Origin: Flavobacteriaceae bacterium
GTDB lineage: Bacteria > Bacteroidota > Bacteroidia > Flavobacteriales > Flavobacteriaceae
DNA length: 32,000 nt
Reading direction: 5' to 3'
NCBI GenBank assembly: GCA_965224465.1
Contig: OZ245049.1
Coordinates: 3,480,001 to 3,512,000 of the forward strand
Each line of letters opens with the position of its first letter. The first letter of the stretch is position 1. A model generated the notes under the pieces. It did not search any database, was not told the DNA's origin, and worked only from the letters and a program-made list of their open reading frames with translations. Positions 2,524 to 26,186 of the stretch are shown in pieces. The position numbers were made by a program, and so were the translations under genes.

Positions 2524-3669
2524 TTAAATCAATGCCAATGCTTGTTCTAAATCAGCAATTAAATCTTCTTTATCTTCTATTCCAACACTCAATCTGATCA
2601 AAGAATCTACCACACCTGTTTTTTCACGTTCCTCTTTTGGGATCGATGCATGTGTCATACTCGCTGGATGTCCTGCTAGTGATTCCACACCTCCTAATGA
2701 TTCTGCTAAAGTGAATATTTTAAAGTTTTCGACCAAGGTAAAGGCGTCTTTTATACTGTTTCCTTTGGTTGAAAAAGATAGCATTCCTCCAAAATCACGC
2801 ATTTGTTCTTTGGCAATAGCATGGTTTGGATGGTTTTTAAATCCGGGCCAGAACACGGTTGCTACTTTTGGATGCTTGGCTAAATATTCTGCCACTGCTT
2901 TTCCGTTTTCACAATGGCGTTGCATACGTACATGCAATGTTTTAATACCTCTTAATACAAGAAAACTGTCCATAGGGCCACAAATAGCGCCACAAGAGTT
3001 TTGAATAAAATACAATTTATCTGCCAATTTTTTATCGTTCACAATTAAAGCGCCCATAACTACATCCGAGTGTCCTCCCAAATATTTAGTAGCAGAGTGC
3101 ATTACAATGTCAGCGCCCATATCTAACGGGTTTTGAAGGTAAGGAGTGGCAAAAGTATTGTCTACAACTAGTAGTACATTGTGCTTTTTAGCAATGGTTG
3201 CAGCCGCTTTTATATCAACGATATTTAGCATTGGATTGGTAGGTGTTTCTACCCAGATAATCTTAGTATTTGTATTGATATAGGATTCGATATTGTGAGC
3301 ATTTTGCATCCCTATAAAATGAAATTTGATACCGTATTGTTCAAATATCTTTGTAAAAATACGGTATGTTCCACCGTATAAATCATTGGTAGAGACTACT
3401 TCATCTCCTGGTTTTAATAGTTTTAACACGCAGTCTATGGCTGCTAATCCAGATCCGAATGCCAATCCATAATTTCCGTTTTCGATGCTTGAAAAAGCAT
3501 TCTCTAATGCTGTCCGTGTTGGGTTTCCTGATCTAGAATATTCATATCCTTTGTGGTTTCCAGGGGATGTTTGTGCATAGGTAGATGTCTGGTATATAGG
3601 AGGCATAACAGCTCCAGTAGATGGATCGTACTGTTGTTTGCCATGTATTGTTTTTGTATTGAATTTCAT
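2524..3669 (-). CDS. Cys/Met-metabolism PLP-dependent enzyme (cystathionine beta-lyase / gamma-synthase / gamma-lyase family)
   Basis: 381 aa. N-terminal TIHG...DP.TGAV..PIY.TSTY, YSRSGNPTR, and the PLP-lysine motif SATKYLGGHSD are all hallmarks of the family. The exact reaction cannot be assigned from sequence alone. Confidence 0.9.
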   Translation of the reverse strand: MKFNTKTIHGKQQYDPSTGAVMPPIYQTSTYAQTSPGNHKGYEYSRSGNPTRTALENAFSSIENGNYGLAFGSGLAAIDCVLKLLKPGDEVVSTNDLYGGTYRIFTKIFEQYGIKFHFIGMQNAHNIESYINTNTKIIWVETPTNPMLNIVDIKAAATIAKKHNVLLVVDNTFATPYLQNPLDMGADIVMHSATKYLGGHSDVVMGALIVNDKKLADKLYFIQNSCGAICGPMDSFLVLRGIKTLHVRMQRHCENGKAVAEYLAKHPKVATVFWPGFKNHPNHAIAKEQMRDFGGMLSFSTKGNSIKDAFTLVENFKIFTLAESLGGVESLAGHPASMTHASIPKEEREKTGVVDSLIRLSVGIEDKEDLIADLEQALALI

Positions 3670-3704: not shown

Positions 3705-4943
3705 TTATTTTTTTTGCAATCTTTTAATTAGTTTACCTACGGTTAATCCCTGTCCAATAATAGAGAATACAACGATTATATAGGTGATAACTAAAAATAA
3801 ATCACGGTGCATTACCGTAGTTAAGCTTAAAGCAAGAGCAATAGAGATCCCTCCTCTAAGTCCACCCCAAGTCATAATTAAATTGGTATTTGGGACGAAA
3901 TCTAATTTTTTAGCAAATATTTTGATAGGAATCATCAAGGATAAATAGCGCGCAAATAAGAGCATCGGAATGCATAGAACACCTGCTAATATATAATGAT
4001 GATCGTAGGTTAGGACTAGGATTTCCATTCCGATCATTACAAATAAGATGGTATTGAGAAGAATGTCTAATAATTCCCAAAACTTATCTACATATTGTTC
4101 GGTGATTTTACTCATGGATGAATTCCGGACGGTATCGGTTCCCACAATTAAACCTGCCGTAACCATGGCAAGCGGAGCAGAAACGTGTAGTTTTTGTGCA
4201 AGTACAGTTCCTCCCATTACCGTAGCAAGGGTTATAATTACCTCTACATCGTAATCGTTGATAGATTTTAAAAGCTTGTATGTTACCCAGCCCAATAAAA
4301 AACCGAGGACAATTCCTCCAATTACTTCTACGACAAATAGTTCTGTTATTTCTAAAAATGTAATGTCAGTTCCTCCTGCGGCAATTTTGTAGATGGTTAA
4401 AAATATGACAACCCCTACGCCATCATTAAAAAGAGATTCTCCAACAATTTTTGTTTCTAGTTTTTTAGGAGCACCTGCTTGTTTTAAAATTCCTAATACG
4501 GCTATAGGGTCTGTAGGTGATATTAAAGCTCCAAAGAGCAAGCAATAGATAAAGTCAACTTCCAGTCCAATAGCATTTAATAAGAGGTAGCTAAAGCCTC
4601 CTACCAGAAAAGTAGACGTAAAGGTGCTAAATATAGCGAAACTTATAATAGGTTTTCGCTGTACTTTTAATTGTTCAAAATTGGTATGTAAGGCTCCTGC
4701 AAATAAAAGGAAACTAAGCATTACATCTAATAATACCGTTTTAAAATCGATGGTGGCTATTAAAAGTTTTTCATGTTCTAAAAGAGTGTCGTCAATATAA
4801 CTTGATGCTAATATAATCAGTGTAAATACGATTGTAATAACCATAAGTCCAATGGTATTTGGCATTTTTAAGAAACGAACATTTATATATCCAAACAATG
4901 CAGATAAGACAATGAGTACCGAAGCTATTAAAAATAATTCCAT
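3705..4943 (-). CDS. Cation:proton antiporter, CPA1 (NhaP-like Na+/H+ exchanger)
   Basis: 412 aa, 10 or more TM segments. Conserved ISPTDPIAV and ESLFNDG motifs typical of the Na+/H+ exchanger family. Confidence 0.85.
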
Positions 4944-4944
4944 C

Positions 4945-5400
4945 TTAAACGAGTTTTTTAATTGCCATTATAATACCCAAATGTATGCCTTCGTGGTAAT
5001 TAGAAAATTGAATTGCTTTTTCTACGTTTGTCAATTCAAAACCTAAACTAGTGGTATACGTATTATAGGTTTTAAATATCCCGGCAGCATAGTCCGATTC
5101 CATTTTCTCTGTAAGAGGTAATAATTCGGCAAGTAGAGATTTCATATCTTCTGTGGTCATCTCCGTATTGGCAGTAGAGCCTTTTCCGTAATTTGCAATA
5201 GTTTGATCCGAAATTAAACAAGGAAGCCCAGATAGTTTGTACACCAATAATTGTTGCGTAACGATGGTATGTCCAATGTTCCAAGCAATGTTATTATTAA
5301 ACCCTTGTGGAATGGTGTTTAATTGTTCTTGATTTAATCCTTCTGCTATTGCAAGGATACACTTTCTGTTGAATTTTGTAACGTTGAATTGTGTGTTCAT
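4945..5400 (-). CDS. DinB-family (DinB_2-like) four-helix-bundle protein
   Basis: 151 aa. The pattern NIAWNIGH...(helix)...H near the C-terminus (YHEGIHLG) fits the DinB His-triad layout. Starts 1 nt after the stop of the next gene, so probably co-transcribed with the antiporter. Confidence 0.65.
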
Positions 5401-5562
5401 CTGAATATAGTATGTTTTAGCTTTTCAATTTTTGTTAAAAGTATTCATTTTTTATGGAATGTGTTTAAGGATAGCGGGATTCTCTAGTTCCTATCGGAGA
5501 TCTTCTCTAAAGAGCACTTGTTTTTGTATATTTGAAAGATAAACTACGAACTATTTATAAAT

Positions 5563-5874
5563 ATGAAGAAAATATACCATTTAATAACCTGTGATAAGTG
5601 TCGGAAAATTTTAAAGGAAATGGATACGACCGATTATGAGCTCCAAGAAATAAAATCTACGCCTATTACGGCTACACAATTAGATGCTTTATTTGAGCGA
5701 ACACAGTCCTATGAAATGCTTTTTAGTAGAAGAGCAAAAAAATACACAGAAATGGGTTTAAAAAATAAAAAGTTGACAGAAACTGACTTTCGTCAGCTTA
5801 TATTAGAAGAATACACCTTTCTAAAGAGACCTATTATACTATGTAACCATAAAGTCACGATAGGAAAAAAATAA
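5563..5874 (+). CDS. ArsC/Spx/YffB-family thioredoxin-fold protein
   Basis: 103 aa. N-terminal MKKIYHL.TCDKCRK (beta1-Cys-helix signature of the ArsC family) and C-terminal FLKRPII motif. Confidence 0.75.
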   Translation: MKKIYHLITCDKCRKILKEMDTTDYELQEIKSTPITATQLDALFERTQSYEMLFSRRAKKYTEMGLKNKKLTETDFRQLILEEYTFLKRPIILCNHKVTIGKK

Positions 5875-6018
5875 AGTTTTAAGAGTTTCTGTCTTATATT
5901 GTTAGTTACGAGCGTGTATAGTTGTCAGATTCATATATTTTTCAATTTTTTATAAAAAATACCGTATAGTCACACATAACATCTATATTTGTTTTGAACA
6001 TTAACAAAATATTAGAAG

Positions 6019-6918
6019 ATGAAAAAATTATTATTTGTAGTAGCAGTATTTGCTATGACTAGTGTAAGTGCGCAGTTTTATGTATCGGGTAGTGTAGGGT
6101 ATGCTATAGGTAGTGCTGGCGTAAAAATGGGAGAAATAGAAACAGATACTTCTATAGAAGCTACCTATGGAAGTTATGGAGAGGGTATGAATTCACAGTT
6201 GCGAGTTGGTTATTTTTTTAACGATACTTTTGGTGTGGATTTGGGAGTTGGTTATCTTCATGGAGCAGATCAGACCCTAAAGGATTTTAATAGACCTTCT
6301 ACGGGGCAAACATTGAAAATAATTGGTAGAGGAAGAGCTTTCGGAATTATGCCATCATTGGTGTATAAGTTTTCTGATCATATTTATGGAAGAGTTGGAG
6401 CATTGATAAAAATTGGTGGAAAAACGGAAGTTAAAGGTTCTGCGTCTGCTTTTTTACCTAATGGAACTTTACCGAGTGTACCAGCGGATGCATTATTGAA
6501 AGTTGATTTTACAAGAGATTTTCATGGTCAATTACCTTTAGGAGCTACAGCTGCTTTTGGTTATAAACGTTCGATAGGTCAGAATTTAGAGGTTTTTGTT
6601 GAAGCTGAATATATGGGAATTAGCGTACGTAGAAAAGATGCAGAGTTGTCTCAGTTTTCAGGAACTCTGACTGTTGCGGGTAAAACATCAGAAATTTCAA
6701 GAGATGGTTTGTTACAAACTATTGCTAGTTCTCCAGCATTATCAGCTAATCCTAATATTCAGACGTTAGCAATTTTAATTTCAGATAAAACAAATTATGT
6801 AGATTCAAAAGGTAATTCTCCAAGTGCAACTGAGTTTCTTGCTGATACCGTTCCATACTCATCATTTGGAATTAACTTTGGGATCACTTATACTTTTGGA
6901 AAGAGTTCAAAAAAATAA
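6019..6918 (+). CDS. Outer-membrane beta-barrel (porin-like) protein with signal peptide
   Basis: Signal peptide MKKLLFVVAVFAMTSVSAQ. Gly/Tyr/Phe-rich alternating strands. Ends GINFGITYTFGK. Confidence 0.6.
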   Translation: MKKLLFVVAVFAMTSVSAQFYVSGSVGYAIGSAGVKMGEIETDTSIEATYGSYGEGMNSQLRVGYFFNDTFGVDLGVGYLHGADQTLKDFNRPSTGQTLKIIGRGRAFGIMPSLVYKFSDHIYGRVGALIKIGGKTEVKGSASAFLPNGTLPSVPADALLKVDFTRDFHGQLPLGATAAFGYKRSIGQNLEVFVEAEYMGISVRRKDAELSQFSGTLTVAGKTSEISRDGLLQTIASSPALSANPNIQTLAILISDKTNYVDSKGNSPSATEFLADTVPYSSFGINFGITYTFGKSSKK

Positions 6919-6937: not shown

Positions 6938-6967
6938 AAAAAGCGATTCTTAGGGGTCGCTTTTTTT
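6938..6967 (+). terminator. Probable rho-independent terminator
   Basis: AAAAGCGA-ttcttagggg-TCGCTTTTTTT: a short GC stem extended by A/T pairs, then a T-run. Confidence 0.6.
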
Positions 6968-7135
6968 ATATATATAAACTATTGAGTGTAAATATTTTAG
7001 CTGTTTATTTATGGATGTTACCGGACTAACGTCTTGTGTAAATGGTATAAAAAACAATATAAACAGTTCTAATAATTGAATATTTTGTGCTATATTAGAG
7101 TTTTAATAAGTGTATAACATTGAAAACCCCACGAT

Positions 7136-7639
7136 ATGTCCCTACAATCCCCACAAAAAGTTTTGGCAGTAATTATGTTAGTAGTAGCTACATTTTCTTG
7201 TAGTAACGATTTAGAAATAGTAGAAGAAATGGAACGCGTAGATGATGTGCCTTATGCGTATAGTGTTTTGGAACAAGAAATATCATTGCTTATAAATACG
7301 CATAGAGAACAGTTAGGTCTGTCTACTCTTAAAATGCTGAACGAATCTAGTCTACAATCTAGAAATCAATCTAAACACATGCTAGAGCACACACATATAT
7401 GTCATGATGATTTTTCTGATAGATATGATTATTTAGTAGCTACAGTAAATGCAATCAGAGTTGGTGAAAATACCGCATTTGGATATGAGTCCGCATCGGC
7501 TGTTGTAAATAGTTGGTTGAAAAGTTACACGCATAAAAATATCATCGAAGACCCTATGTTTACTCATTTTGGAATCTCTGTTTCAAATGGAGGTCCACGA
7601 AATAATTATTTTTGTCAAATATTTGTTCGTATACCATAA
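7136..7639 (+). CDS. CAP/SCP/PR1-like domain lipoprotein
   Basis: Lipobox-like VATFSC. CAP-domain blocks (HR.Q.GL..L, ...H...M, GEN.AFGY, S....V..W..S..H..N...P.F.H.G.S) appear in the expected order. Confidence 0.7.
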   Translation: MSLQSPQKVLAVIMLVVATFSCSNDLEIVEEMERVDDVPYAYSVLEQEISLLINTHREQLGLSTLKMLNESSLQSRNQSKHMLEHTHICHDDFSDRYDYLVATVNAIRVGENTAFGYESASAVVNSWLKSYTHKNIIEDPMFTHFGISVSNGGPRNNYFCQIFVRIP

Positions 7640-7749
7640 CTAAGGTCACTTAAAAATCTAGATAATTAAGTACCGTATCTTTACATAGTAAGTTTTGTTT
7701 TTGTACAAAAAATCAATATTTTTTTGAAAGCAGTTTTTAAAATTAATTT

Positions 7750-7787
7750 CCAAATGACTATTTATATCGGTCATTTGGATTTTTTTT
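7750..7787 (+). terminator. Perfect 9-bp hairpin plus T8. Terminator-like, and built from the terminal motif of the dispersed repeat family seen at 15.8, 20.2, 24.9 and 26.0 kb
   Basis: CCAAATGAC (7750-7758), 11-nt loop, GTCATTTGG (7770-7778), then ATTTTTTTT. Positions 7759-7778 are the reverse complement of the CCAAA(A)TGACCGATATAAATA head of the dispersed repeat. Confidence 0.5.
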
Positions 7788-7937
7788 GCTGTGACTTATA
7801 CCGAATGTATGAAAGCTCTTTATCCGTAAAATGGCTTTTTTTTAGGGTTTTCTATTTTGCTAATAGGTAAAATATACGTAGTTTTATATATTGTTTAACC
7901 TCGTGTTTATTTTTTATACGTTCAAATACAATATATT

Positions 7938-9857
7938 ATGAGTGTGTTCCCTGACATTCCAAAAACTTTATCTACAGAAAATTCTATTTTAAATAAATTA
8001 AATATCATTGTGATGTCTTTTGATTGTAATGGGCAGGTCTATTACGCATCAGAAGGGATTACACCCATTACCGGCTATACAAGCACCTCAGTTTTAGGAG
8101 AGGGATGGTGGCAGCTTTCTTTTGATACTCCTCTTTTAGGGCAGCAGCAAAAAAATGTTGTAATAGATATTTTGAAAGGATTAATACCTTATCCAACGGT
8201 ACCTATAGATCGTAAGATTCTATGCAAAGATGGATCTCATAAATGGATCGAGTGGAGGTTGTCTCGTGGAGAAGAAAATACCGTGCTTGTATCGGGTGTT
8301 GATATTACAGACTGGAAAAGAAAAGAAGAAGAGGTAGTTCAAGCGGATAAAATATTGAATAGCATAGACTCCTTGGTGTTGGTAAGTGATGAAAATAGCA
8401 GTATTTTATATGCTTCCTCTTCCGTCGAACGTATGTTAGGTTTTAGCAAAGAAGAGGTTTTAGGTACGGGTTGGTGGGAAAACACTTTCGATAGCAGGCA
8501 TGAAGCTAGTGTAGAAAAAAAAGAGATTCAAAACGTTGTGCTTTTGAACAAGCAGTTTTCTCGCGATGTTTCTAGAAGAAGAATTAAAACAAAATCAGGC
8601 AGCTATAAATGGATTGATTGGTTTGTTTCTAAAGGGATAAATAATACCTGTATTTCTGTAGGTACAGATGTTTCACGAAAAATCGCGTCTGATCTTGCCT
8701 TAAAATTAGCCAAGGAACAAGCAGAAAAATCCGTACTTGTTAAAAATGAGTTTATAGCAAATATGAGTCATGAAATTAGGACTCCTTTAAACGCATTATT
8801 AGGGTTTACAGCATTATTACTAGAAACTAAATTGGATAGCGAACAGCGAGAACACCTTGGAACTATGCGTGATTCGGGGGCTATTTTATTGTCTTTGATA
8901 AACAATGTTTTGGATTTATCTAAACTTGATTCTAAAAATATAGACCTAGAAAAAATAGTGTTTAATCTTCATAACGCACTTTGTGATGTGGTAAAAATAA
9001 TGAAGGTAAGAGCTTTGAAGAAAAATATCGCACTGGAAATCGAAATAGCTAAAGATGTACCGGAGTTTATTAAAAGTGATTCTTCTCGTTTTGATCAAAT
9101 TATGCTGAACCTTATTGGGAATGCTATTAAATTTACAGATAAAGGAGCGGTAAATATAAAGGTGAAAACAGAAAATAGAAGGGAGGATAGATGCTGCCTT
9201 ATAATTGAAGTACAGGATACCGGGCTTGGGATTATGTCTAGTAAGTTAGACCAAGTTTTTGACGTGTTTACGCAAGCTACGAGCGAAACTGCACGTATAT
9301 ATGGAGGGACTGGACTAGGATTGTCTATTGTAAAAAAACTAGTGCATCTGCTAGCAGGTGATATTAGAGTAGAAAGCGAGTATGGAAAAGGAAGTGTTTT
9401 TATTGTCGAAATCCCAATAGAGGCGGTACATGTTAAAAATAAACGACTTGACAAGGAGCTTGTTTTAACGGAGGATAAAAAAATTCATATCAATATTTTG
9501 TTGGTGGAAGACAATAAAGCCAATCAACTTCTTGCCAGTACACGGTTAAGAAGATGGGGGTGTATAGTAGCTATAGCTAATAACGGGATAGAAGCCGTAA
9601 AATTGGTAGAGAAAAACAAGCCTTATGATGTGATTTTAATGGATATTCAAATGCCAATTATGGATGGTTATGAAGCTACAAAAATTATTAAGAACGATCT
9701 GAAAGGGGCTCGCAAAGAAATACCTATTATTGCCATGACGGCGTATGCCTCCAAAACAGATATTAAGAAAGCGTTAAAAGCAGGTATGTGCGACTATGTA
9801 TTCAAACCATTTGATGCAGAGATGCTCTATAAAAAATTAATCGAATATACCTTGTAA
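7938..9857 (+). CDS. Hybrid sensor histidine kinase / response regulator with two PAS-like domains
   Basis: Two PAS-like repeats (GEGWWQLSFD / GTGWWENTFD). H-box NMSHEIRTPLNALLGF. N-box GNAIKFT. G-boxes DTGLGI and GGTGLGLSIVKKL. C-terminal receiver domain (LLVEDN ... DVILMDIQMPIMDG ... K in FKPF). Confidence 0.92.
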   Translation: MSVFPDIPKTLSTENSILNKLNIIVMSFDCNGQVYYASEGITPITGYTSTSVLGEGWWQLSFDTPLLGQQQKNVVIDILKGLIPYPTVPIDRKILCKDGSHKWIEWRLSRGEENTVLVSGVDITDWKRKEEEVVQADKILNSIDSLVLVSDENSSILYASSSVERMLGFSKEEVLGTGWWENTFDSRHEASVEKKEIQNVVLLNKQFSRDVSRRRIKTKSGSYKWIDWFVSKGINNTCISVGTDVSRKIASDLALKLAKEQAEKSVLVKNEFIANMSHEIRTPLNALLGFTALLLETKLDSEQREHLGTMRDSGAILLSLINNVLDLSKLDSKNIDLEKIVFNLHNALCDVVKIMKVRALKKNIALEIEIAKDVPEFIKSDSSRFDQIMLNLIGNAIKFTDKGAVNIKVKTENRREDRCCLIIEVQDTGLGIMSSKLDQVFDVFTQATSETARIYGGTGLGLSIVKKLVHLLAGDIRVESEYGKGSVFIVEIPIEAVHVKNKRLDKELVLTEDKKIHINILLVEDNKANQLLASTRLRRWGCIVAIANNGIEAVKLVEKNKPYDVILMDIQMPIMDGYEATKIIKNDLKGARKEIPIIAMTAYASKTDIKKALKAGMCDYVFKPFDAEMLYKKLIEYTL

Positions 9858-14446: not shown

Positions 14447-15658
14447 ATGACAATAGGTGTAGGTGGCTCAACGGCCGAAATAGAGTTAGCGAAAATATCA
14501 GATATGACTGTAGGTGTACAGCCTATAAAAAAAGAAGAATACCAACAACGTATAGAAAAGGCTGCGCGTTTAATGCAAGCGCAAAACATTGTTGCAACCT
14601 ATATAAATGCAGGAACCAATCTGTATTATTTTACGGGTACAAAATGGAATGCATCTGAACGAATGGTAGGTGCCATTTTAACTCAAAAAGGCGAGTTGGA
14701 ATACATTGTTCCCAAGTTTGAAGATGGAACTTTTTTAAAATACAGATTGATAGAAGGTGATTTAAATTGCTGGGAAGAGCACGAAAGTCCCTATGCTTTA
14801 GTAGGTGCTATTTTAAAAGAAAAAGGACTTGCAAATGGAACTGTTGCTATTGACGAGTCGGCGAACTTTTTCTTAGCGGATGGCTTGGTTAAAGAAAATA
14901 CGGACTACACCTTTGTAAGTGCCGAACCCATAACTGCTGGTTGTCGCATGCAAAAATCAGAAAACGAGATCGCTATTATTCAACGTGCTAAGGACATGAC
15001 TATATTGGTGCAAAAAGCAGCTGCAAAAATTATGCGTGTTGGTATTTCGGTAAAAGAAGTAGAAACATTTATTCACCAAGCGCATATAAAAGCAGGCGCG
15101 AAGGAAGGTTCTTTTTTTGTAATTGTGTTGTTTGGTGAGGATTCTCAATTTCCTCATGGCGTGAGTGTCGCGAAAGATTTAGAAGAAAACGAAATTGTAT
15201 TGGTTGATACGGGTTGTAAACTAGAAGGCTACTTGTCTGATATTACAAGAACCTACGTGTATGGCACACCAAGCGCAAGACATACCGAAATTTGGAATTT
15301 AGAAAAAGCCACGCAATTGGCTGCTTTTAATGCGGCACAAATGGGTGCTACTTGTGGTGCTGTAGATGACGCTGCTAGAAAAGTATTGGCAGATAATGGA
15401 TTGAGCCCAGATTATGATTTACCAGGATTACCACATAGAGTAGGGCATGGAACAGGATTGGATATCCACGAATTTCCGTATTTACTGCGAGGGAATAAAA
15501 CAGTTTTAAAAGAAGGAATGGTTTTGAGTAACGAACCTATGATTTGTATGCCAGGAGAATTTGGAATTCGCCACGAAGATCATTTTTATATGACGGAAAC
15601 AGGCCCTAAATGGTTTACACAGCCAATGAAATCCATAGAGAATCCTTTTGATTTGTAA
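14447..15658 (+). CDS. M24-family metallopeptidase (Xaa-Pro dipeptidase/aminopeptidase, creatinase-like N domain)
   Basis: Pita-bread metal ligands in the expected order: D in LVDTGC, D in YLSDITRT, H in HRVGHGTGLDIHE, E in SNEP, E in IRHED. Confidence 0.9.
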   Translation: MTIGVGGSTAEIELAKISDMTVGVQPIKKEEYQQRIEKAARLMQAQNIVATYINAGTNLYYFTGTKWNASERMVGAILTQKGELEYIVPKFEDGTFLKYRLIEGDLNCWEEHESPYALVGAILKEKGLANGTVAIDESANFFLADGLVKENTDYTFVSAEPITAGCRMQKSENEIAIIQRAKDMTILVQKAAAKIMRVGISVKEVETFIHQAHIKAGAKEGSFFVIVLFGEDSQFPHGVSVAKDLEENEIVLVDTGCKLEGYLSDITRTYVYGTPSARHTEIWNLEKATQLAAFNAAQMGATCGAVDDAARKVLADNGLSPDYDLPGLPHRVGHGTGLDIHEFPYLLRGNKTVLKEGMVLSNEPMICMPGEFGIRHEDHFYMTETGPKWFTQPMKSIENPFDL

Positions 15659-15682
15659 TTAAAAGAATACGATTGATTTTAA

Positions 15683-15716
15683 AAACACGCTTCCCCAAAA
15701 GGAGCGTGTTTTTTTA
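15683..15716 (+). terminator. Rho-independent terminator after the M24 peptidase gene
   Basis: AACACGCTTCC-ccaaaa-GGAGCGTGTT followed by T7. Confidence 0.75.
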
Positions 15717-15790
15717 TTTAGAATTAGCTAAAGGAATTGGTTTGTCCGAAATAATGTGAGCAGCATAGAATACTATCGGATTGTTGTATA

Positions 15791-15947
15791 CTGCCAAATA
15801 CATTAGCAAGTGACGGTTTAGAAATGGAATTATTTTTTGTTCTAGCTAGGTAGAAATTCTAAGGATAGCCTTAGCTGTCGTTCTATTTTTCAATAACGCT
15901 AGAACGTAAAAGAAACTATTTATATCGGTCATTTAGGATTGTAATTG
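15791..15947 (-). repeat. Dispersed MITE-like repeat, copy A (inverted orientation, long form)
   Basis: The reverse complement reads caattacaatCCTAAATGACCGATATAAATAGTTTcTTTTACGTTCTAG...CTAGAACAAAAAATAATTCCATTTCTAAACCGTCACTTGctAATGTATTTGG. It aligns by eye along its whole length with copies at 20151, 24912 and 26021. Confidence 0.75.
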
Positions 15948-16479
15948 TTATAAAGGGGGTTTTGTGATTAGAAAACAGAATAAGAGTCTTCCTTGTTTTT
16001 TGCTATGGAAAAACTAATTTGTACCTGTGGTAGTTGGGTCAGACTTTTTTTGAATGATACAATGTTGCTTTTCGGAGCGTCTCCCGATACGCTTCAAAAA
16101 AGTTACTATAGTAATAAATAGGGAGTCAGGAATAAAAAAAGAAATACAATCTTTTTAAGGATGAGTTTATTGTGGTTTTGCCCTTTTCTAGTCGTTAAAA
16201 ACGATTAAAAATGTGTATTTATTTTTGATTTGTATTTTTCTAAGTATTGTAGGTGTTGAGCTAACGATTTTTAAGTATCAAAAAAAACAAAATCAATATT
16301 ACCAAGTAATATCTGTATTTTAAATACGGTAACTAGATAAACAAAAAATACAGGAAAATTAAAGTTTTAAAAAAAACTTAAGTATATTTGAAAGGCACAT
16401 AGAAGAGATAAACGTCTAAAAACGAGTAGCCAATGCTGCATTTCAGGCAAAATGGATTACGGATATGTGGGGGTTACAA

Positions 16480-16742
16480 ACAGAATGCTCCTTTGGAGTA
16501 AATAAAAGTCCCAGAGGGACAAACTGTTCGTAGCAAATGAACAAGTAATAAAACAATAACAATAATAATCCCAGAGGGATGACCTATCGGGAGAAAAACA
16601 TATACAGATTATTCTACTGGAGTAAATTAAGAAGAAGTCCCAGAGGGACAAACTGTTTGTAGCAATCGAACAATTGAACAAACGAACGAACAAGTAATAA
16701 AATAATAATAATCCCATAGGGATGACCTGTTAAATTAACAAA
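16480..16742 (+). repeat. Two tandem REP-like modules immediately upstream of the transposase gene
   Basis: Each module consists of CT(C/A)C(T)TTGGAG / CTGGAG, then GTCCC-AGA-GGGAC (16508-16520, 16637-16649), then ACAAACTGTT(C/T)GTAGC, an A-rich spacer, and ATCCC-A(G/T)A-GGGAT (16568-16580, 16711-16723). Confidence 0.8.
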
Positions 16743-17207
16743 ATGGCTAATACATACACGCAAATATACATTCAAATTGTTTTTACGGTAAAAGGCAGGC
16801 AAAACCTAATTTCCCGAAAAAATCGTGAAGAATTACATAAATACATCACAGGTATTATCGGCATACGGAACCAAAAATTACTGGCCATATTTGCAATGCC
16901 AGATCATATTCATTTATTGGTTGGATTAAAACCTAATATTTCAATTTCAGATTTGGTTAGAGATATAAAAGCAGGTTCATCAAAATTTATTTCAGATAAT
17001 AATTGGGTAAATGGAAAATTTAGTTGGCAAGAAGGATTTGGAGCATTTTCATATTCAAAAAGTCAAATAGACACTGTTGTGAAATATATTATGACCCAAG
17101 AAGAACATCATAAAACAAAAACATTCAAAGAAGAATATTTAGATTTTTTAAAGAGATTTGATATTGATTATAATGAAAAATATTTATTTGATTGGATAGA
17201 TGAGTAG
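16743..17207 (+). CDS. IS200/IS605-superfamily Y1 (HUH) transposase-like protein, REP-associated (RAYT-like)
   Basis: 154 aa. N-terminal Y.QIYIQIVF.VKGR block. HUH motif H55-I-H57 in PDHIHLLV. WQEGFGAFS block. Tyr115 in the VKYI..Q..HH motif. REP-like hairpin clusters lie on both sides. Confidence 0.88.
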   Translation: MANTYTQIYIQIVFTVKGRQNLISRKNREELHKYITGIIGIRNQKLLAIFAMPDHIHLLVGLKPNISISDLVRDIKAGSSKFISDNNWVNGKFSWQEGFGAFSYSKSQIDTVVKYIMTQEEHHKTKTFKEEYLDFLKRFDIDYNEKYLFDWIDE

Positions 17208-17413
17208 AATCAATTAACAGGTCACACCTATGGTGTTATAATAATATTTGCACCTATGGTGCTACAAACAGTATTGCTCCTCTGGAGCATACAGCAAGGG
17301 CTAAATTTGAGCCACACAATCCGAACAAATATTAGAAAACAGTTTGCTTCCTTAATTACAAAATCTGGAGCAAATAAGAGTAGAAGTCCCAGAGGGACAA
17401 ACTGTTTGTAGCT

Positions 17414-17545
17414 GTTGTGAAATATATTTTGGACCAAGAAGAACATCATAAAACAAAAACATTCAAAGAAGAATATTTAGATTTTTTAAAGAGATTTGAT
17501 ATTGATTATAATGAAAAATATTTATTTGATTGGATAGATGAGTAG
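17414..17545 (+). pseudogene. RAYT 3' cassette 1 (codons 112-154 plus stop), allele ILDQ/EEY/KRF/DE
   Basis: 132 nt, open frame VVKYILDQEEHHKTKTFKEEYLDFLKRFDIDYNEKYLFDWIDE*. Differs from the intact gene only at ATGACC>TTGGAC. Confidence 0.9.
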
Positions 17546-17750
17546 AATCAATTAACAGGTCACACCTATGGTGTTATAATAATATTTGCACCTATGGTGC
17601 TACAAACAGTATTGCTCCTCTGGAGCATACAGCAAGGGATAAATTAGAACCACACAATCCGAACAAATATTAGAAAATAGCTTGCTTCTTAATTACAGAA
17701 TCTGGAGCAAATAAGAGTAGAAGTCCCAGAGGGACAAACTGTTTGTAGCT

Positions 17751-17882
17751 GTTGTGAAATATATTTTGGACCAAGAAGAACATCATAAAACAAAAACATT
17801 CAAAGAAGAATATTTAGATTTTTTAAAGAGATTTGATATTGATTATAATGAAAAATATTTATTTGATTGGATAGATGGGTAG
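17751..17882 (+). pseudogene. RAYT 3' cassette 2, allele ILDQ/EEY/KRF/DG
   Basis: 132 nt, open frame. TTGGAC, and the terminal GAG>GGG. Confidence 0.9.
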
Positions 17883-18088
17883 AAACAATTAACAGTTGAC
17901 ACCTATGGTGTTAGAATAATATTTGCACCTATGGTGCTACAAACAGTATTGCTCCTCTGGAGCATACAGTAAAGAATAAATTATAACCACATAATCCTAA
18001 CAAATATTAGGAATTAGTTTGCTTTCTTAATTACAGAATCTGGAGCAAATAAGAGTAGAAGTCCCAGAGGGACAAACTGTTTGTAGCT

Positions 18089-18220
18089 GTTGTGAAATAT
18101 ATTATGACCCAAGAAGAACATCATAAAACAAAAACATTCAAAGAAGATTATTTAGATTTTTTAAAGAAATTTGATATTGATTATAATGAAAAATATTTAT
18201 TTGATTGGATAGATGGGTAG
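18089..18220 (+). pseudogene. RAYT 3' cassette 3, allele IMTQ/EDY/KKF/DG
   Basis: 132 nt, open frame. Keeps ATGACC as in the intact gene but has GAA>GAT, AGA>AAA and GAG>GGG. Confidence 0.9.
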
Positions 18221-18425
18221 AAACAATTAACAGTTGACACCTATGGTGTTATAATAATATTTGCACCTATGGTGTTACAAACAGTATTGCTCCTCTGGAG
18301 CATACAGCAAGGGATAAATTAGAACCACACAATCCGAACAAATATTAGAAAATAGCTTGCTTCTTAATTACAGAATCTGGAGCAAATAAGAGTAGAAGTC
18401 CCAGAGGGACAAACTGTTTGTAGCT

Positions 18426-18557
18426 GTTGTGAAATATATTTTGGGCCAAGAAGAACATCATAAAACAAAAACATTCAAAGAAGAATATTTAGATTTTTTA
18501 AAGAGATTTGATATTGATTATAATGAAAAATATTTATTTGATTGGATAGATGAGTAG
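18426..18557 (+). pseudogene. RAYT 3' cassette 4, allele ILGQ/EEY/KRF/DE
   Basis: 132 nt, open frame. TTGGGC at codons 117-118. Confidence 0.9.
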
Positions 18558-18763
18558 AATCAATTAACAGGTCACACCTATGGTGTTATAATAATATTTG
18601 CACCTATGGTGCTACAAACAGTATTGCTCCTCTGGAGCATACAGCAAGGGCTAAATTTGAGCCACACAATCCGAACAAATATTAGAAAACAGGTTGCTTC
18701 CTTAATTACAAAATCTGGAGTAAATAAGAGTAGAAGTCCTAGAGGGACAAACTGTTTGTAGCT

Positions 18764-18895
18764 GTTGTGAAATATATTTTGGACCAAGAAGAACATCATA
18801 AAACAAAAACATTCAAAGAAGAATATTTAGATTTTTTAAAGAGATTTGATATTGATTATAATGAAAAATATTTATTTGATTGGATAGATGAGTAG
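18764..18895 (+). pseudogene. RAYT 3' cassette 5, identical allele to cassette 1
   Basis: 132 nt, identical by eye to 17414-17545. Confidence 0.9.
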
Positions 18896-19100
18896 AATCA
18901 ATTAACAGGTCACACCTATGGTGTTATAATAATATTTGCACCTATGGTGTTACAAACAGTATTGCTCCTCTGGAGCATACAGCAAGGGATAAATTAGAAC
19001 CACACAATCCGAACAAATATTAGAAAATAGCTTGCTTCTTAATTACAGAATCTGGAGCAAATAAGAGTAGAAGTCCCAGAGGGACAAACTGTTTGTAGCT

Positions 19101-19232
19101 GTTGTGAAATATATTTTGGACCAAGAAGAACATCATAAAACAAAAACATTCAAAGAAGAATATTTAGATTTTTTAAAGAGATTTGATATTGATTATAATG
19201 AAAAATATTTATTTGATTGGATAGATGGGTAG
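19101..19232 (+). pseudogene. RAYT 3' cassette 6, identical allele to cassette 2
   Basis: 132 nt, identical by eye to 17751-17882. Confidence 0.9.
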
Positions 19233-19437
19233 AAACAATTAACAGTTGACACCTATGGTGTTAGAATAATATTTGCACCTATGGTGCTACAAACAGTATT
19301 GCTCCTCTGGAGCATACAGTAAAGAATAAATTATAACCACATAATCCTAACAAATATTAGGAATTAGTATGCTTTCTTAATTACGGAATCTGGAGCATAT
19401 AAAGTAGAAGTCCCAGAGGGACAAACTGTTTGTAGCT

Positions 19438-19569
19438 GTTGTGAAATATATTATGACCCAAGAAGAACATCATAAAACAAAAACATTCAAAGAAGATTAT
19501 TTAGATTTTTTAAAGAAATTTGATATTGATTATAATGAAAAATATTTATTTGATTGGATAGATGGGTAG
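19438..19569 (+). pseudogene. RAYT 3' cassette 7, identical allele to cassette 3
   Basis: 132 nt, identical by eye to 18089-18220. Confidence 0.9.
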
Positions 19570-19773
19570 AAACAATTAACAGTTGACACCTATGGTGTTA
19601 GAATAATATTTGCACCTATGGTGCTACAAACAGTATTGCTCCTCTGGAGCATACAGTAAAGAATAAATTATAACCACATAATCCTAACAAATATTAGGAA
19701 TTAGTTTGCTTTCTTAATTACGGAATCTGGAGCATATAAAGTAGAAGTCCCAGAGGGACAAACTGTTTGTAGC

Positions 19774-19886
19774 AAACAAACAAGTAATAAAATAATAATC
19801 CCAGAGGGATGACCTGTTAAATTAACAAAAGGATTAATCTATACATGCAAATATACATTCAAATTGTTTTTACGGTAAAAGGCAGG
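19774..19886 (+). pseudogene. Second copy of the RAYT upstream flank plus the first ~19 codons of a RAYT gene, with the start codon destroyed and the gene truncated
   Basis: AAACAAACAAGTAATAAAATAATAATCCCAGAGGGATGACCTGTTAAATTAACAAAA-GGATTAATCTATACATGCAAATATACATTCAAATTGTTTTTACGGTAAAAGGCAGG parallels 16664-16798. ATGGCT has become AGGATT. Homology stops after GGCAGG at 19886. Confidence 0.85.
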
Positions 19887-20150
19887 TACTACCAAAATCC
19901 AATGCGGGCTTGTTATTAACAGGAAGTTCCGTGCTTTAAACAAAGACCGCCAACATGAACTCTCACCGATGGTAAATATTTTAATTTGAAATAAAGGTAT
20001 TTGTGATACAAGAGTGGGTTTTAAGAGGGCAAAGAAAAAACATAATATAATCTTAGACGAAGTGTTTAACCGAAAGTTTAATTACTTTTAGGCATGGTTT
20101 CAAACCTAAAGATGGTGCATTTTTAATCTCTTGTGTTCTTTATGTAATAC

Positions 20151-20278
20151 CAATTACAACCCAAAATGACCGATATAAATAGTTTGTTTTACGTTCTAGT
20201 GTTGTTTAAAAACAGAATGATAGCTAAAACAAAAAATAATTCTATTTATAAACCGTCACTTGGAAATGTATTTGGTAT
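20151..20278 (+). repeat. Dispersed MITE-like repeat, copy B (short form)
   Basis: caattacaacCCAAAATGACCGATATAAATAGTTTGTTTTACGTTCTAG...AGCTAAAACAAAAAATAATTCTATTTATAAACCGTCACTTGGAAATGTATTTGGTAT. Lacks the ~30-nt internal segment present in copies A and C. Confidence 0.75.
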
Positions 20279-20325
20279 AAACCATTAGAAAAAACATATA
20301 TAATTATACATTTTAAAAACAATAC

Positions 20326-20943
20326 ATGGAGAATTTACTAACATTTTCAATAACTGTATTTACAGGTTTTTTTGCCATAATGAATCCAATAGCGAACGTT
20401 CCTATATTTTCATCGTTGGTTCAAGATGCAGATAGAAATACAAAAAGGAGAATTGCAAAAAAATCTACTTTGATCGCCTTTTTAATAGTTACAATATTTG
20501 TAGTGTTAGGTAAATTTATTTTTGAATTATTTGGCATCACCATACCTGCATTTAAAATAACAGGCGGAATTTTAATTTTTTATGTTGGTTTTGAAATGCT
20601 TCAGTCTAAAAAATCGTCGGTAAAACACCTTAAAAACCCAAGTATTGACGAGAATATTGCCGTTTCACCACTTGCAATCCCTATTCTTGCAGGGCCAGGG
20701 ACAATTGTAACGGCTATGAACTATGTAACTAATGCTGAAATTGTGCATATTGGTATTGTAATTGCGGTGTTTGCATTAATGTGCTTATTAACATATTTTT
20801 TCTTCCTTATTAGTGATAAACTTGTAGAATTACTTGGTACAAATGTTATTTCAGTAATTGCTAAAATAATGGGATTAATAATAGCTATTATTGGTACGAA
20901 TATGATAATTGAAGGCGTAAAAATAGCCTTTAATTTAAACTAA
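20326..20943 (+). CDS. MarC-family (UPF0056) integral membrane protein
   Basis: 205 aa, 6 TM. N-terminal F..F.AI.NPI.N.PIF motif and central SPLAIP.LAGPG motif characteristic of the MarC family. Confidence 0.85.
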   Translation: MENLLTFSITVFTGFFAIMNPIANVPIFSSLVQDADRNTKRRIAKKSTLIAFLIVTIFVVLGKFIFELFGITIPAFKITGGILIFYVGFEMLQSKKSSVKHLKNPSIDENIAVSPLAIPILAGPGTIVTAMNYVTNAEIVHIGIVIAVFALMCLLTYFFFLISDKLVELLGTNVISVIAKIMGLIIAIIGTNMIIEGVKIAFNLN

Positions 20944-24775: not shown

Positions 24776-24911
24776 CTTTTTGAGTAAATAAAAGTTCTGT
24801 AAATTTTAATTTTAGGGATAAAAATAGTATTTTTCAAAAAAAATTGCATCCAATGCTAATTGCTAGAGTCACATGAAGGAGGGTTATCTCCTTGTGGTAC
24901 TTATAACCAAT

Positions 24912-25063
24912 AACAATCCAAAATGACCGATATAAATAGGTTGTTTTACGTTCTAGGCTTTTTGAAAAACAGCACGATAGCTTAGTCTATCCTTAGATTT
25001 CACGCCTAGCTAAAACAAAAAACAATTCTATTTCTAAACCGTCAATGGAAATGTATTTGGTAT
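24912..25063 (+). repeat. Dispersed MITE-like repeat, copy C (long form)
   Basis: aacaatCCAAAATGACCGATATAAATAGGTTGTTTTACGTTCTAGG...CTTAGTCTATCCTTAGATTTCACGCCTAGCTAAAACAAAAAACAATTCTATTTCTAAACCGTCAATGGAAATGTATTTGGTAT. Confidence 0.75.
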
Positions 25064-26007: not shown

Positions 26008-26020
26008 TTATACCAACTGA

Positions 26021-26186
26021 AACCCAAAATAATCAATAAAAACAGCTTGTTTTACATTCTAATATCATTAAAAACAGTACAATAGCTAAGGCTGTCCGTC
26101 TGTTTTTTGTCTCGCTATCCGCCCAGTCGGAGAACAAACAAAAAATAATTGCATTTCTAAACCGTCTTTGGGAATGTATTTGGTAT
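26021..26186 (+). repeat. Dispersed MITE-like repeat, copy D (degenerate head, different internal insert)
   Basis: aaCCCAAAATAATCAATAAAAACAGCTTGTTTTACATTCTAA...AACAAACAAAAAATAATTGCATTTCTAAACCGTCTTTGGGAATGTATTTGGTAT. The tail is well conserved and the head is diverged. Confidence 0.65.

Follow-up and report, generated by a model that had tools for sequence, protein, structure and literature searches.

How does a transposase gene come to be followed by seven further copies of its own 3' end, each with its hairpins, all head-to-tail? The question is raised by a stretch of 32,000 nucleotides from the genome of a Flavobacteriaceae bacterium (GenBank assembly GCA_965224465.1, contig OZ245049.1, positions 3,480,001 to 3,512,000 of the forward strand; 'the window' below), in which the gene for a small Y1/HUH transposase homologue runs into a tandem array of eight units. 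The answer favored here, with somewhat more confidence than doubt, is amplification in situ within a cassette laid out like a REPtron, a Y1/HUH gene bracketed by inverted repetitive extragenic palindromes (REPs): the enzyme itself would have made the founding join, and unequal recombination the growth that followed. The parts of the locus are these (window positions, all on the + strand; REP1 and REP2 are two hairpin motifs, (+) and (-) their two orientations):

16474-16533, +, left boundary, a compact REP1(-)/REP1(+) doublet: TTAC-AAACAGAAT-GCTCC-TTT-GGAGT, 8 nt, GTCCC-AGA-GGGAC-AAACTGTTC-GTAG
16568-16616, +, extra REP2(+) hairpin, ATCCC-AGA-GGGAT followed by GACCT..., in a partial leader copy upstream
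16637-16662, +, REP1(+) of the leader (left end): GTCCC-AGA-GGGAC, AAACTGTTT and GTAG, a motif conserved across the family
16711-16733, +, REP2(+) of the leader: ATCCC-ATA-GGGAT and GACCTGTTAA, the inverted partner of 17214-17236
16743-17207, +, intact tnpA-like gene of 154 aa (open reading frame and profile matches)
17074-19773, +, tandem array, 8.0 copies of a 337/338-bp unit, the first of them the gene's native 3' end plus flank
17074, 17412, 17749, 18087, 18424, 18762, 19099 and 19436, +, starts of the eight units
17214-17261, +, inner part of the right end, unit 1: TTAACAGGTC followed by ACACC-TAT-GGTGT, REP2(-)
17262-17288, +, outer part of the right end, unit 1, REP1(-): CTAC, AAACAGTATT and GCTCC-TCT-GGAGC, an inverted copy of REP1(+)
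17308-17367, +, relic of the 5' end of hsdR, unit 1: TQSEQILENSLLP*LQNL against HsdR residues 10-28 of a relative (L081)
17386-17412, +, REP1(+) closing unit 1, then the junction GTAG-C/TGTTGTG onto gene nt 332
19774-19829, +, native continuation past the last unit: remainder of a leader, including REP2(+), ATCCC-AGA-GGGAT and GACCTGTTAA
19830-19886, +, decayed 5' fragment of a second gene copy, its ATG changed to AGG; similarity stops near 19886

Tandem Repeats Finder reports a single large array at 17074-19773 (period 337, 8.0 copies, 95% matches, 0% indels, score 4791), and a repeat search gives start-to-start spacings of 338, 337, 338, 337, 338, 337 and 337. The unit opens within codon 111, at its second base (gene nt 332); codons 112-154 and the stop are repeated (132 nt in frame, 134 nt of gene tail per unit), and seven extra open reading frames (ORFs) of 42 aa, ending at 17545, 17882, 18220, 18557, 18895, 19232 and 19569, repeat the gene's C-terminus. 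A first-pass annotation, made from the letters alone, had described most of this: an eightfold head-to-tail repeat with a 337/338-bp period, repetition from codon 112 with 132 coding nt per unit, co-amplification of the transposase 3' end with hairpin-bearing flanks, TAG stops at 17205, 17543, 17880, 18218, 18555, 18893, 19230 and 19567, and four stem-loops per unit (CACC-TAT-GGTG twice, GCTCC-TCT-GGAGC and GTCCC-AGA-GGGAC). These claims hold: the period and spacings agree with it, all eight stops are recovered from the ORF ends, and the four hairpins are present in all eight units, the sole exception being one C to T change in unit 5. It overlooked where two parts of the unit came from: the hairpin at the end of each unit repeats the one that comes first in the gene's upstream leader (16637-16662), and ~60 nt of each unit are an hsdR relic. 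It likewise saw the repeat, and missed both the leader and 5' gene copy after unit 8 and a higher-order repeat of four units.

Within a unit the order is gene tail, right end (REP2(-) twice, then REP1(-)), the ~60-nt hsdR relic, and a partial leader with REP1(+) and GTAG-C. The second CACC-TAT-GGTG hairpin, in the inner part of the right end, is a 26-nt duplication (a 26-nt period in Tandem Repeats Finder). In each of the eight units REP1(-) and REP1(+) lie in opposite orientation ~97 nt apart, the arrangement of bacterial interspersed mosaic elements (BIMEs) and of tandem REPINs (REP doublets forming hairpins); in the centroid fold CTACAAACAG pairs with CTGTTTGTAG, with a free-energy z-score of -3.1. 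Within the window, REP1 and REP2 hairpins are confined to 16.47-19.81 kb, and there is one intact copy of the gene plus fragments. An Rfam scan of 15500-20500 at E <= 1 gave no match. The array occupies part of a 4.7-kb gap, 15659-20325, between an M24 peptidase gene and a marC gene, in which the 154-aa gene is the only ORF longer than 100 aa; neither 15952-16456 nor 19887-20146, both AT-rich, has a match elsewhere in the window or in the relatives' loci.

The gene itself is an intact Y1/HUH transposase homologue. Its product matches Pfam PF01797 (Y1_Tnp) with E = 4.9e-25 and 88.4 bits (cutoff 23); it carries D54HIH57, within which H55-I-H57 is the HUH motif, W95Q96 and, on the C-terminal helix, Y115-IMT-Q119-EE-H122H123, followed by a C-terminal extension of 31 residues after the HH pair. 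The nearest solved structure is ISDra2 TnpA (2xm3, E = 2.3e-5), in which Y115 aligns with the position of Y132, the catalytic residue of that enzyme. Both the intact 154-aa HUH/Y1 gene at 16743-17207 and the putative catalytic Tyr115 of the first-pass annotation are borne out, the one by the ORF and the Pfam match, the other by this alignment. Its label 'RAYT-like' (RAYT, REP-associated tyrosine transposase) suits the architecture and not the sequence: the protein scores 37.3 bits on the NCBIfam model REP_Tyr_transpos, below the cutoff of 80, and has YIMTQ, within Y---Q--HH, instead of the YI..NP of class-2 RAYTs (TnpA-REP). The NCBIfam model transpos_IS200, which describes IS200/IS605, is passed (68.7 bits, cutoff 55).

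Quentin et al. (2018, PMC6006769) characterize subclass 1.2 of TnpA-Y1 by Y---Q--HH, DH[IV]H, WQ and a conserved C-terminal domain of ~30 aa. All of these are found in the 154-aa protein, whose signature places it in subclass 1.2 and not among the classical RAYTs. The subclass is also characterized by a low genomic copy number, and the window has a single intact copy of the gene beside fragments. The same authors list subclass 1.2 with 'no' associated secondary structures and report it as REP-less; here, inverted hairpin-GTAG motifs stand at both flanks. The absence of terminal IS200-type structures or REPs is a descriptive trait of the subclass, not a defining one. Homologues are plentiful (8000 matches, the best 120 of them at 76-100% identity), and JGI (the Joint Genome Institute) labels many of them 'RayT'. 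In one relative, a Cyclobacteriaceae metagenome-assembled genome (MAG; L065, 515-973 and 1475-1885), the subclass 1.2 gene is directly followed downstream by another Y1 gene, a divergent one with 34% identity to the query over residues 1-137.

The ends of the cassette emerge from alignment of the window with its closest relatives, loci L001, L002, L081 and L082 (83-89% protein identity), with which it has conserved non-coding ends in common. The leader in this alignment runs REP1(+), ~25-50 nt, REP2(+) (ATCCC-AGA-GGGAT and GACCTGTTAAAT), then ATG. Nested inverted repeats bracket the gene: 16699-16733 with 17214-17248, and REP1(+) at 16637-16662 with REP1(-) at 17262-17288. This layout is REPtron-like and differs from the same-strand ends of IS200/IS605; the cognate REPs are inverted around the gene, and the orientation specificity holds across loci. 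Among the relatives the stems show compensating changes (ATCCC/GGGAT against GCCCC/GGGGC; GTCCC/GGGAC against GCTCC/GGAGC). Upstream of the gene in the window the leader is duplicated in tandem, with a spacing of ~129 nt, and the whole of 16.47-19.89 kb is a head-to-tail series of complete and defective copies of the cassette.

The hairpins are not peculiar to the window. REP1 has a 5-bp stem, a 3-nt loop, ~9 nt that include CTGTTT, and GTAG, with inverted copies on either side of the gene. When 82 relatives' loci were scanned for a perfect GC-rich hairpin, 6-12 nt and GTAG, the motif was found upstream of the gene on the top strand in 22 and downstream in inverted orientation in 16; wrong-orientation controls gave 2 of the 82 upstream and 3 downstream. 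The background rate is 0.009 per 200 nt, and away from the gene the relatives' loci are at this level. Aligned examples, 31 in all, come from Bacteroidota, Ignavibacteria, Verrucomicrobiota and other bins, and share the consensus A-G-stem-loop-stem-(G/A)AA-CTGTTT-GTAG. Covariation is seen in 4 of 5 stem pairs; the set was preselected for pairing, so this is a measure of stem diversity and not proof of structure. Conservation of the CTGTTT linker is independent evidence for the motif, because the linker was not a selection criterion. The 'no associated structure' entry for subclass 1.2 is thereby contradicted. GTAG repeats have been reported in Proteobacteria, Cyanobacteria, Chloroflexi and the PVC (Planctomycetes-Verrucomicrobia-Chlamydiae) phyla, and only CGTC repeats in Bacteroidetes (Di Nocera et al. 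2013, PMC3733652); GTAG-tagged hairpins are now extended to Bacteroidota.

High-copy dispersal, the habit of classical REPs, is not seen: in the 32-kb window, which is all that this statement covers, there are no copies outside 16.47-19.81 kb, and gene-less modules in metagenomes are few. A metagenome scan with REP1 gave eight contigs, comprising one REP1 beside tnpA (L085), six from a single gene-less locus, and one solo leader; a scan with a 35-nt right-end pattern gave 0 matches. The gene-less locus (L086-L091, e.g. L088 214-470; contigs of wastewater type) is a palindromic module, REP2(-) REP1(-) aaat REP1(+) REP2(+): right end and leader are joined, the contig lacks a transposase gene, and the whole resembles a REPIN or a circle junction.

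Where did the ~60 nt of hsdR come from? In L001 (4251-9483), L081 (781-4741) and L082 (3079-9951), whose proteins are 87-89% identical to that of the window, the subclass 1.2 gene lies between hsdS (Methylase_S) and hsdR (HSDR_N), within a type I restriction-modification (R-M) operon. DNA alignment with these three loci reveals the relic, which corresponds to the first codons of hsdR; its translation TTQSEQILENSLL matches HsdR residues 10-22. In the 32-kb window no R-M genes were found, in contrast to the R-M operon surrounding the gene in its close relatives. The operon position in the relatives, the relic, and a window free of R-M genes together indicate that the cassette left such an operon carrying a scrap of hsdR. 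That scrap is now a dead passenger in all units, and the most variable part of the unit (17 of 67 columns); a unit with such cargo is not a purpose-built element. The R-M link is limited to the closest clade, L001, L081 and L082, and was not found in more distant relatives. Genes of the GxxExxY/PDDEXK_3 and KilA-N types lie near these three R-M loci. In a further relative, a Flavobacteriaceae MAG (L002), direct repeats of ~70 nt (2340-2410 and 3100-3170; CAGAAYACCTG...AATAATCATTA...) flank a cassette of leader, gene, right end and hsdR relic, which suggests insertion of this cassette into another repeat, or its duplication along with one.

The way in which the array began can be approached through its junctions. 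From unit to unit the sequence reads ...GGGACAAACTGTTTGTAGC/TGTTGTGAAATAT...; the parents are the leader, ...TTTGTAGC/AATCGAAC, and the gene, ...ATAGACAC/TGTTGTG. At the junction, GTAGC/TGTTG, the parental sites share 1 nt (C), and the break falls 0-1 nt past GTAG, which is the 3' edge of the conserved REP1 motif. Microhomology of 1 nt, with exactly 8.0 copies, identifies the founding event as an illegitimate join and not homologous recombination. Past unit 8, 19785-19896 is 88% identical to 16698-16809 (leader plus ~57 nt of gene start); the array is therefore bounded by native sequence on both sides, the signature of tandem duplication of one segment. A second leader copy downstream of the right end further implies that the region was already head-to-tail before amplification. 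Slipped-strand misalignment between CTGTTTGTAG (REP1 linker) and CTGTTGTGAA (gene) was also considered, and rejected: both copies are retained at the junction.

The later history is recorded in the differences between units. Neighboring units differ by 3-9%, and up to 31 of 338 positions distinguish one unit type from another; units 1-4 are nearly repeated as units 5-8, a higher-order repeat of four units and 1350 bp. Units 2 and 6 differ at 1 position, 3 and 7 at 4, 1 and 5 at 6, and the adjacent units 7 and 8 at 7. Units 4 and 8 are mosaics, with a common coding type and different flank types. A recent block duplication laid over older, diverged units, together with recombinants, points to unequal crossing-over or gene conversion, and growth by unequal homologous recombination is well supported. 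The gene has taken part in the exchange. Residues 117-118 are L-N in the relatives, L-D in most units, and M-T in the live gene and in units 4 and 8. Most units are thus nearer to the ancestral state than is the gene, so the array predates the M117/T118 substitutions; units 4 and 8 carry the gene's derived codons, so sequence has passed between gene and array.

A model for such a founding join already exists. TnpA-REP cleaves single-stranded DNA at CT or CA, 5' or 3' of the REP and also far from its binding site; it uses GTAG in the choice of site, and performs strand transfer (PMC3333891; Corneloup et al. 2021, PMC8266576). In the BIME model of Ton-Hoang et al. (2012, PMC3333891), cleavage is followed by extension of the 3'-OH through the REP, by a second cleavage of the newly made strand, 3' of the REP, and by attack of that end on the first 5'-phosphotyrosine; a passage of that paper allows that flanking genes or gene fragments could be sequestered in this way. 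Applied to the window, the steps would be as follows. A cassette of leader (REP1(+), REP2(+)), subclass 1.2 Y1/HUH gene and right end (REP2(-), REP1(-)) would formerly have lain between hsdS and hsdR, and would have kept ~60 nt of hsdR on leaving. One illegitimate join would then have connected the site past GTAG of the downstream REP1(+) (17411/17412) to gene nt 331/332 (17073/17074), duplicating the intervening 337 bp. The Y1 enzyme itself may have made this join, as in the TnpA-REP/BIME amplification model: a first cleavage at a secondary site, gene nt 331/332, would free a 3'-OH to be extended through the REP; a second cleavage 3' of the REP, past GTAG(C) of the downstream REP1(+), would be followed by strand transfer to the first 5'-phosphotyrosine end. 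Mapped onto the locus, the TnpA-REP model yields exactly the observed junction and flanks. Subsequent growth and reshuffling would be the work of unequal homologous recombination between units, the recent duplication of the four-unit (1350-bp) block included. An enzyme-made founding duplication seems the most likely origin. As a local amplification, the array would not be a mobile element of a new kind, nor would it be a set of functional genes. Of three mechanisms proposed at first pass, illegitimate duplication with unequal crossing-over fits best, given the seamless native flanks, the 1-nt microhomology, the block repeat and the mosaics.

Rearrangements of a similar kind occur among the relatives. 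Of 80 loci analyzed with Tandem Repeats Finder, about a quarter have tandem arrays directly beside the gene: hairpin arrays with periods of 47-51 nt just upstream, and long-period arrays downstream (L004, 561 x 2.7; L040, 363 x 4.3; L074, 312 x 2.3; L039, 208 x 2.4). We count 9 long-period arrays at distances of up to ~1 kb from the gene, against 3 in the much larger remainder of the loci. About a third of the loci have additional leader and right-end copies near the gene. The relatives with arrays are mostly without gene fragments, and the 8 x 337 bp of the window is the largest case among the loci examined. In L046 (a Saprospiraceae MAG) five head-to-tail, internally deleted cassettes of ~275-290 bp each (4187-5662) precede the full gene (6001-6629); each consists of leader, gene nt ~15-100 (nt 19-67 kept), the last ~10 nt, and right end. 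This is the mirror image of the window's array, with the gene's 5' end co-amplified. In Alkalitalea saponilacus (L062; 5690-5870, 6001-6462, 8231-8560) gene nt 327-462 and the right end recur at 94% identity 1.8 kb downstream of the gene, past an ORF at ~6957-8216; upstream there is another copy of the right end, which includes a few bases from the end of the gene. Shorter tail fragments are found in L039 and L077.

Two observations touch the position of the breakpoint within the gene. That of the Alkalitalea tail copy (nt ~327) is no more than ~5 nt from that of the window (nt 332), immediately ahead of the catalytic-Tyr coding region. In two Chryseobacterium loci, L017 and L024, the V-V/I-K-Y-I-L-N codons at gene nt 332-356 (locus 6332-6356) form an AT-rich palindrome of 25 nt, GGTTGTAAAATATATTTTAAACC, that starts where the window's array starts; such a palindrome may mark a site prone to breakage or pausing, or may be an accident of the codons.

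A stronger and more tentative version of enzyme-made amplification takes the array as a catalytic footprint: the subclass 1.2 enzyme would cut single-stranded DNA right after the GTAG ~9 nt 3' of its hairpin, and units would be added by strand transfer or by copying of a rolling-circle-like kind, perhaps through 337-nt circles. Several points tell against the enzyme as author of the founding join, or against the history proposed for the array. The array comes from one genome, as sequence. C/T and C/A dinucleotides, present at the parental sites, are too common to serve as evidence of cleavage. Hairpins can stall replication or attract gyrase, so adjacency to REP1 alone does not implicate the transposase. 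The internal deletion in the Saprospiraceae copies is at ordinary microhomology, and the Alkalitalea tail copy has no abutting GTAG; neither resembles site-specific cleavage. Divergence of up to 9% between neighbors is unexpectedly high for an unselected bacterial tandem array; the array may have persisted for long, or may have received sequence from copies outside the view of this study.

Much the same points favor the main rival, an account that is unlikely but has to be taken seriously: the local amplification was as described, and the transposase had no part in it. Replication error, breakage at a hairpin, or gyrase or topoisomerase action would have produced an illegitimate join by host means, beside REP1 by chance. 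Microhomology of 1 nt is what such a join would show, the higher-order repeat and mosaics are products of ordinary recombination, the Alkalitalea rearrangement and the Saprospiraceae deletion lie at non-REP positions, and one passage of PMC2817692 reports that BIMEs bind gyrase. The chance element is the difficulty: the end of REP1, a motif conserved in several phyla, is no more than 1 nt from the break, and arrays are strongly concentrated beside these genes, in the ratio of long-period arrays near to and far from the gene given above.

An improbable alternative makes the 337-nt unit a non-autonomous mobile element that excises as a single-stranded circle and re-inserts repeatedly beside its own end, at a regenerated GTAG. 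It would account for the coincidence of unit boundaries with GTAG; modules of right end and leader without a gene are known from other organisms (L086-L091, L084), L046 and L062 have defective cassettes arrayed head-to-tail, and an excision/integration model has been published for BIMEs. But duplication of a four-unit block cannot come from insertions of single units; the unit's left end lies inside the gene, with no REP1- or REP2-like hairpin; no solo unit, and no REP1 or REP2 hairpin elsewhere, was found in the 32-kb window; and the unit carries hsdR debris, while its right-end-specific sequence had no match in two metagenome scans. Self-adjacent insertion of a non-autonomous element, the first mechanism offered at first pass, is disfavored by the block duplication, the hairpin-less left end and the want of solo copies in the window.

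That assembly error created the array, or its copy number, is very improbable. Units 2 and 6 are separated by their single difference and the 1350-bp blocks are near-identical, beyond the resolution of short reads; however, the identical protein is recorded once, on a single contig of 5.24 Mb, suggesting a finished and probably long-read assembly, differences of 3-9% between neighbors in a structured mosaic are not an assembler's product, and comparable arrays are present in independent assemblies of the relatives.

Hardly credible is the last proposal, without support here, that the array is a reservoir of 3' cassettes that recombine into the expressed gene, as suggested at first pass, and vary its catalytic-helix and C-terminal region, or else that the 42-aa tail peptides are expressed and act as regulators: gene and array have exchanged sequence, since the derived M117 and T118 codons of the gene tail recur in units 4 and 8 and the family-typical L117 is retained by most units, and all seven substitutions inferred in the 6 variable columns of 134 in the coding tail change an amino acid (M117L, T118D/G, E to D, R to K, E154G), but seven nonsynonymous against zero synonymous is not significant (estimated P ~0.13 under neutrality), five residues are touched, there is no sign of purifying selection on the tail peptide, whose low diversity may come from AT-richness, the relatives' arrays mostly lack gene fragments, and no such system is known for Y1 transposases.

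If the array arose by enzyme-made joining and unequal recombination, how much of it is new? IS608 and ISDra2 carry both end hairpins on the top strand, and we know of no description of head-to-tail tandem arrays as an outcome of peel-and-paste transposition. The cassette shares with IS200/IS605 the Y1 TnpA fold and subterminal hairpins at both ends, which the L046 deletion derivatives also keep; unlike those elements it has end hairpins that are mutually inverted, not on the same strand, and no tnpB. The nearer comparison is with the REPtrons of E. coli TnpA-REP, likewise one Y1/HUH gene bracketed by inverted GTAG-tagged hairpins (PMC3333891, PMC8266576). There, however, the enzyme is of class 2, not of class 1 subclass 1.2, and GTAG abuts the 5' foot of the hairpin; here it lies ~9 nt 3' of a hairpin with a 5-bp stem.

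Tandem reiteration of REPs is also familiar. REPINs occur in tandem, up to five (Bertels & Rainey 2011, PMC3337134), BIME-2 arrays are known, and clusters of REP singletons or dimers repeated together with variable flanking DNA have been described (Di Nocera et al. 2013, PMC3733652). The first-pass statement that no described category fits was too strong, as such reiteration with flanking DNA and gene fragments is published, with models for the enzyme (PMC3733652, PMC3333891, PMC3337134). The window's array looks like an unusually large version of these clusters: as in BIME-2, atypical BIME clusters and tandem REPINs (PMC3337134), units with inverted REPs stand head-to-tail at one locus. It departs from BIMEs and REPINs in a 337-bp unit with 134 nt of the enzyme's own gene and an hsdR relic, from dispersed REPs in hairpins found, within 32 kb, at this locus only, and from the clusters of PMC3733652 in that those units are not described as carrying a transposase 3' end.

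What is new here includes the enzyme lineage and its candidate substrate geometry. By its DH[IV]H, WQ and Y---Q--HH motifs, its length of ~150 aa, its ~30-aa C-terminal domain and its occurrence in Bacteroidota, the protein resembles subclass 1.2, described as REP-less; unlike the published subclass (PMC6006769), the window and a substantial share of the 82 loci are flanked by hairpin-GTAG motifs, often in tandem arrays, with GTAG ~9 nt 3' of the 5-bp hairpin. New also is the unit, in its length (337 bp) and in what it carries, the coding region for the catalytic-Tyr helix and C-terminal domain together with the hsdR relic; and so is a founding junction at the edge of a conserved motif.

Documented in one genome only, the array probably arose as a neutral by-product, and is of value mainly as a clue rather than as a new biological system. 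Subclass 1.2 proteins are widespread and uncharacterized, with thousands of homologues at 60-89% identity in Bacteroidota and other phyla. The window and the 82 loci supply a candidate substrate for them (hairpin, CTGTTT, GTAG, inverted around the gene), and a natural rearrangement with its junction at the edge of that motif; the two together make binding and cleavage specificity testable with oligonucleotides. Local amplification in the style of REPtrons and BIMEs is extended past the class-2 RAYTs of Proteobacteria. Were the array a true catalytic footprint, subclass 1.2 would be a third REP-processing lineage, present in several phyla and with a substrate geometry of its own, and one that builds local arrays instead of dispersed REPs.

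A second repeat family, of ~160 nt and unrelated in sequence to the REP1 and REP2 hairpins, is dispersed between genes of the window: at 15794-15953 (+), 20147-20275 (-), 24901-25060 (-) and 26008-26186 (-), with a fragment at 7757-7781. Two of its copies face each other across the locus (15794-15951 and 20147-20275, an inverted repeat of 130-160 nt) and were considered as boundaries of the cassette; the further copies at 24901-25060 and 26008-26186 led to rejection of this idea. The family has no Rfam match and is absent from the relatives' loci. Its copies are 74-93% identical to one another and contain internal palindromes, GTTCTAGC...GCTAGAAC and CTAAGG-ATAG-CCTTAG; they may represent a miniature inverted-repeat transposable element or a family of small RNAs.

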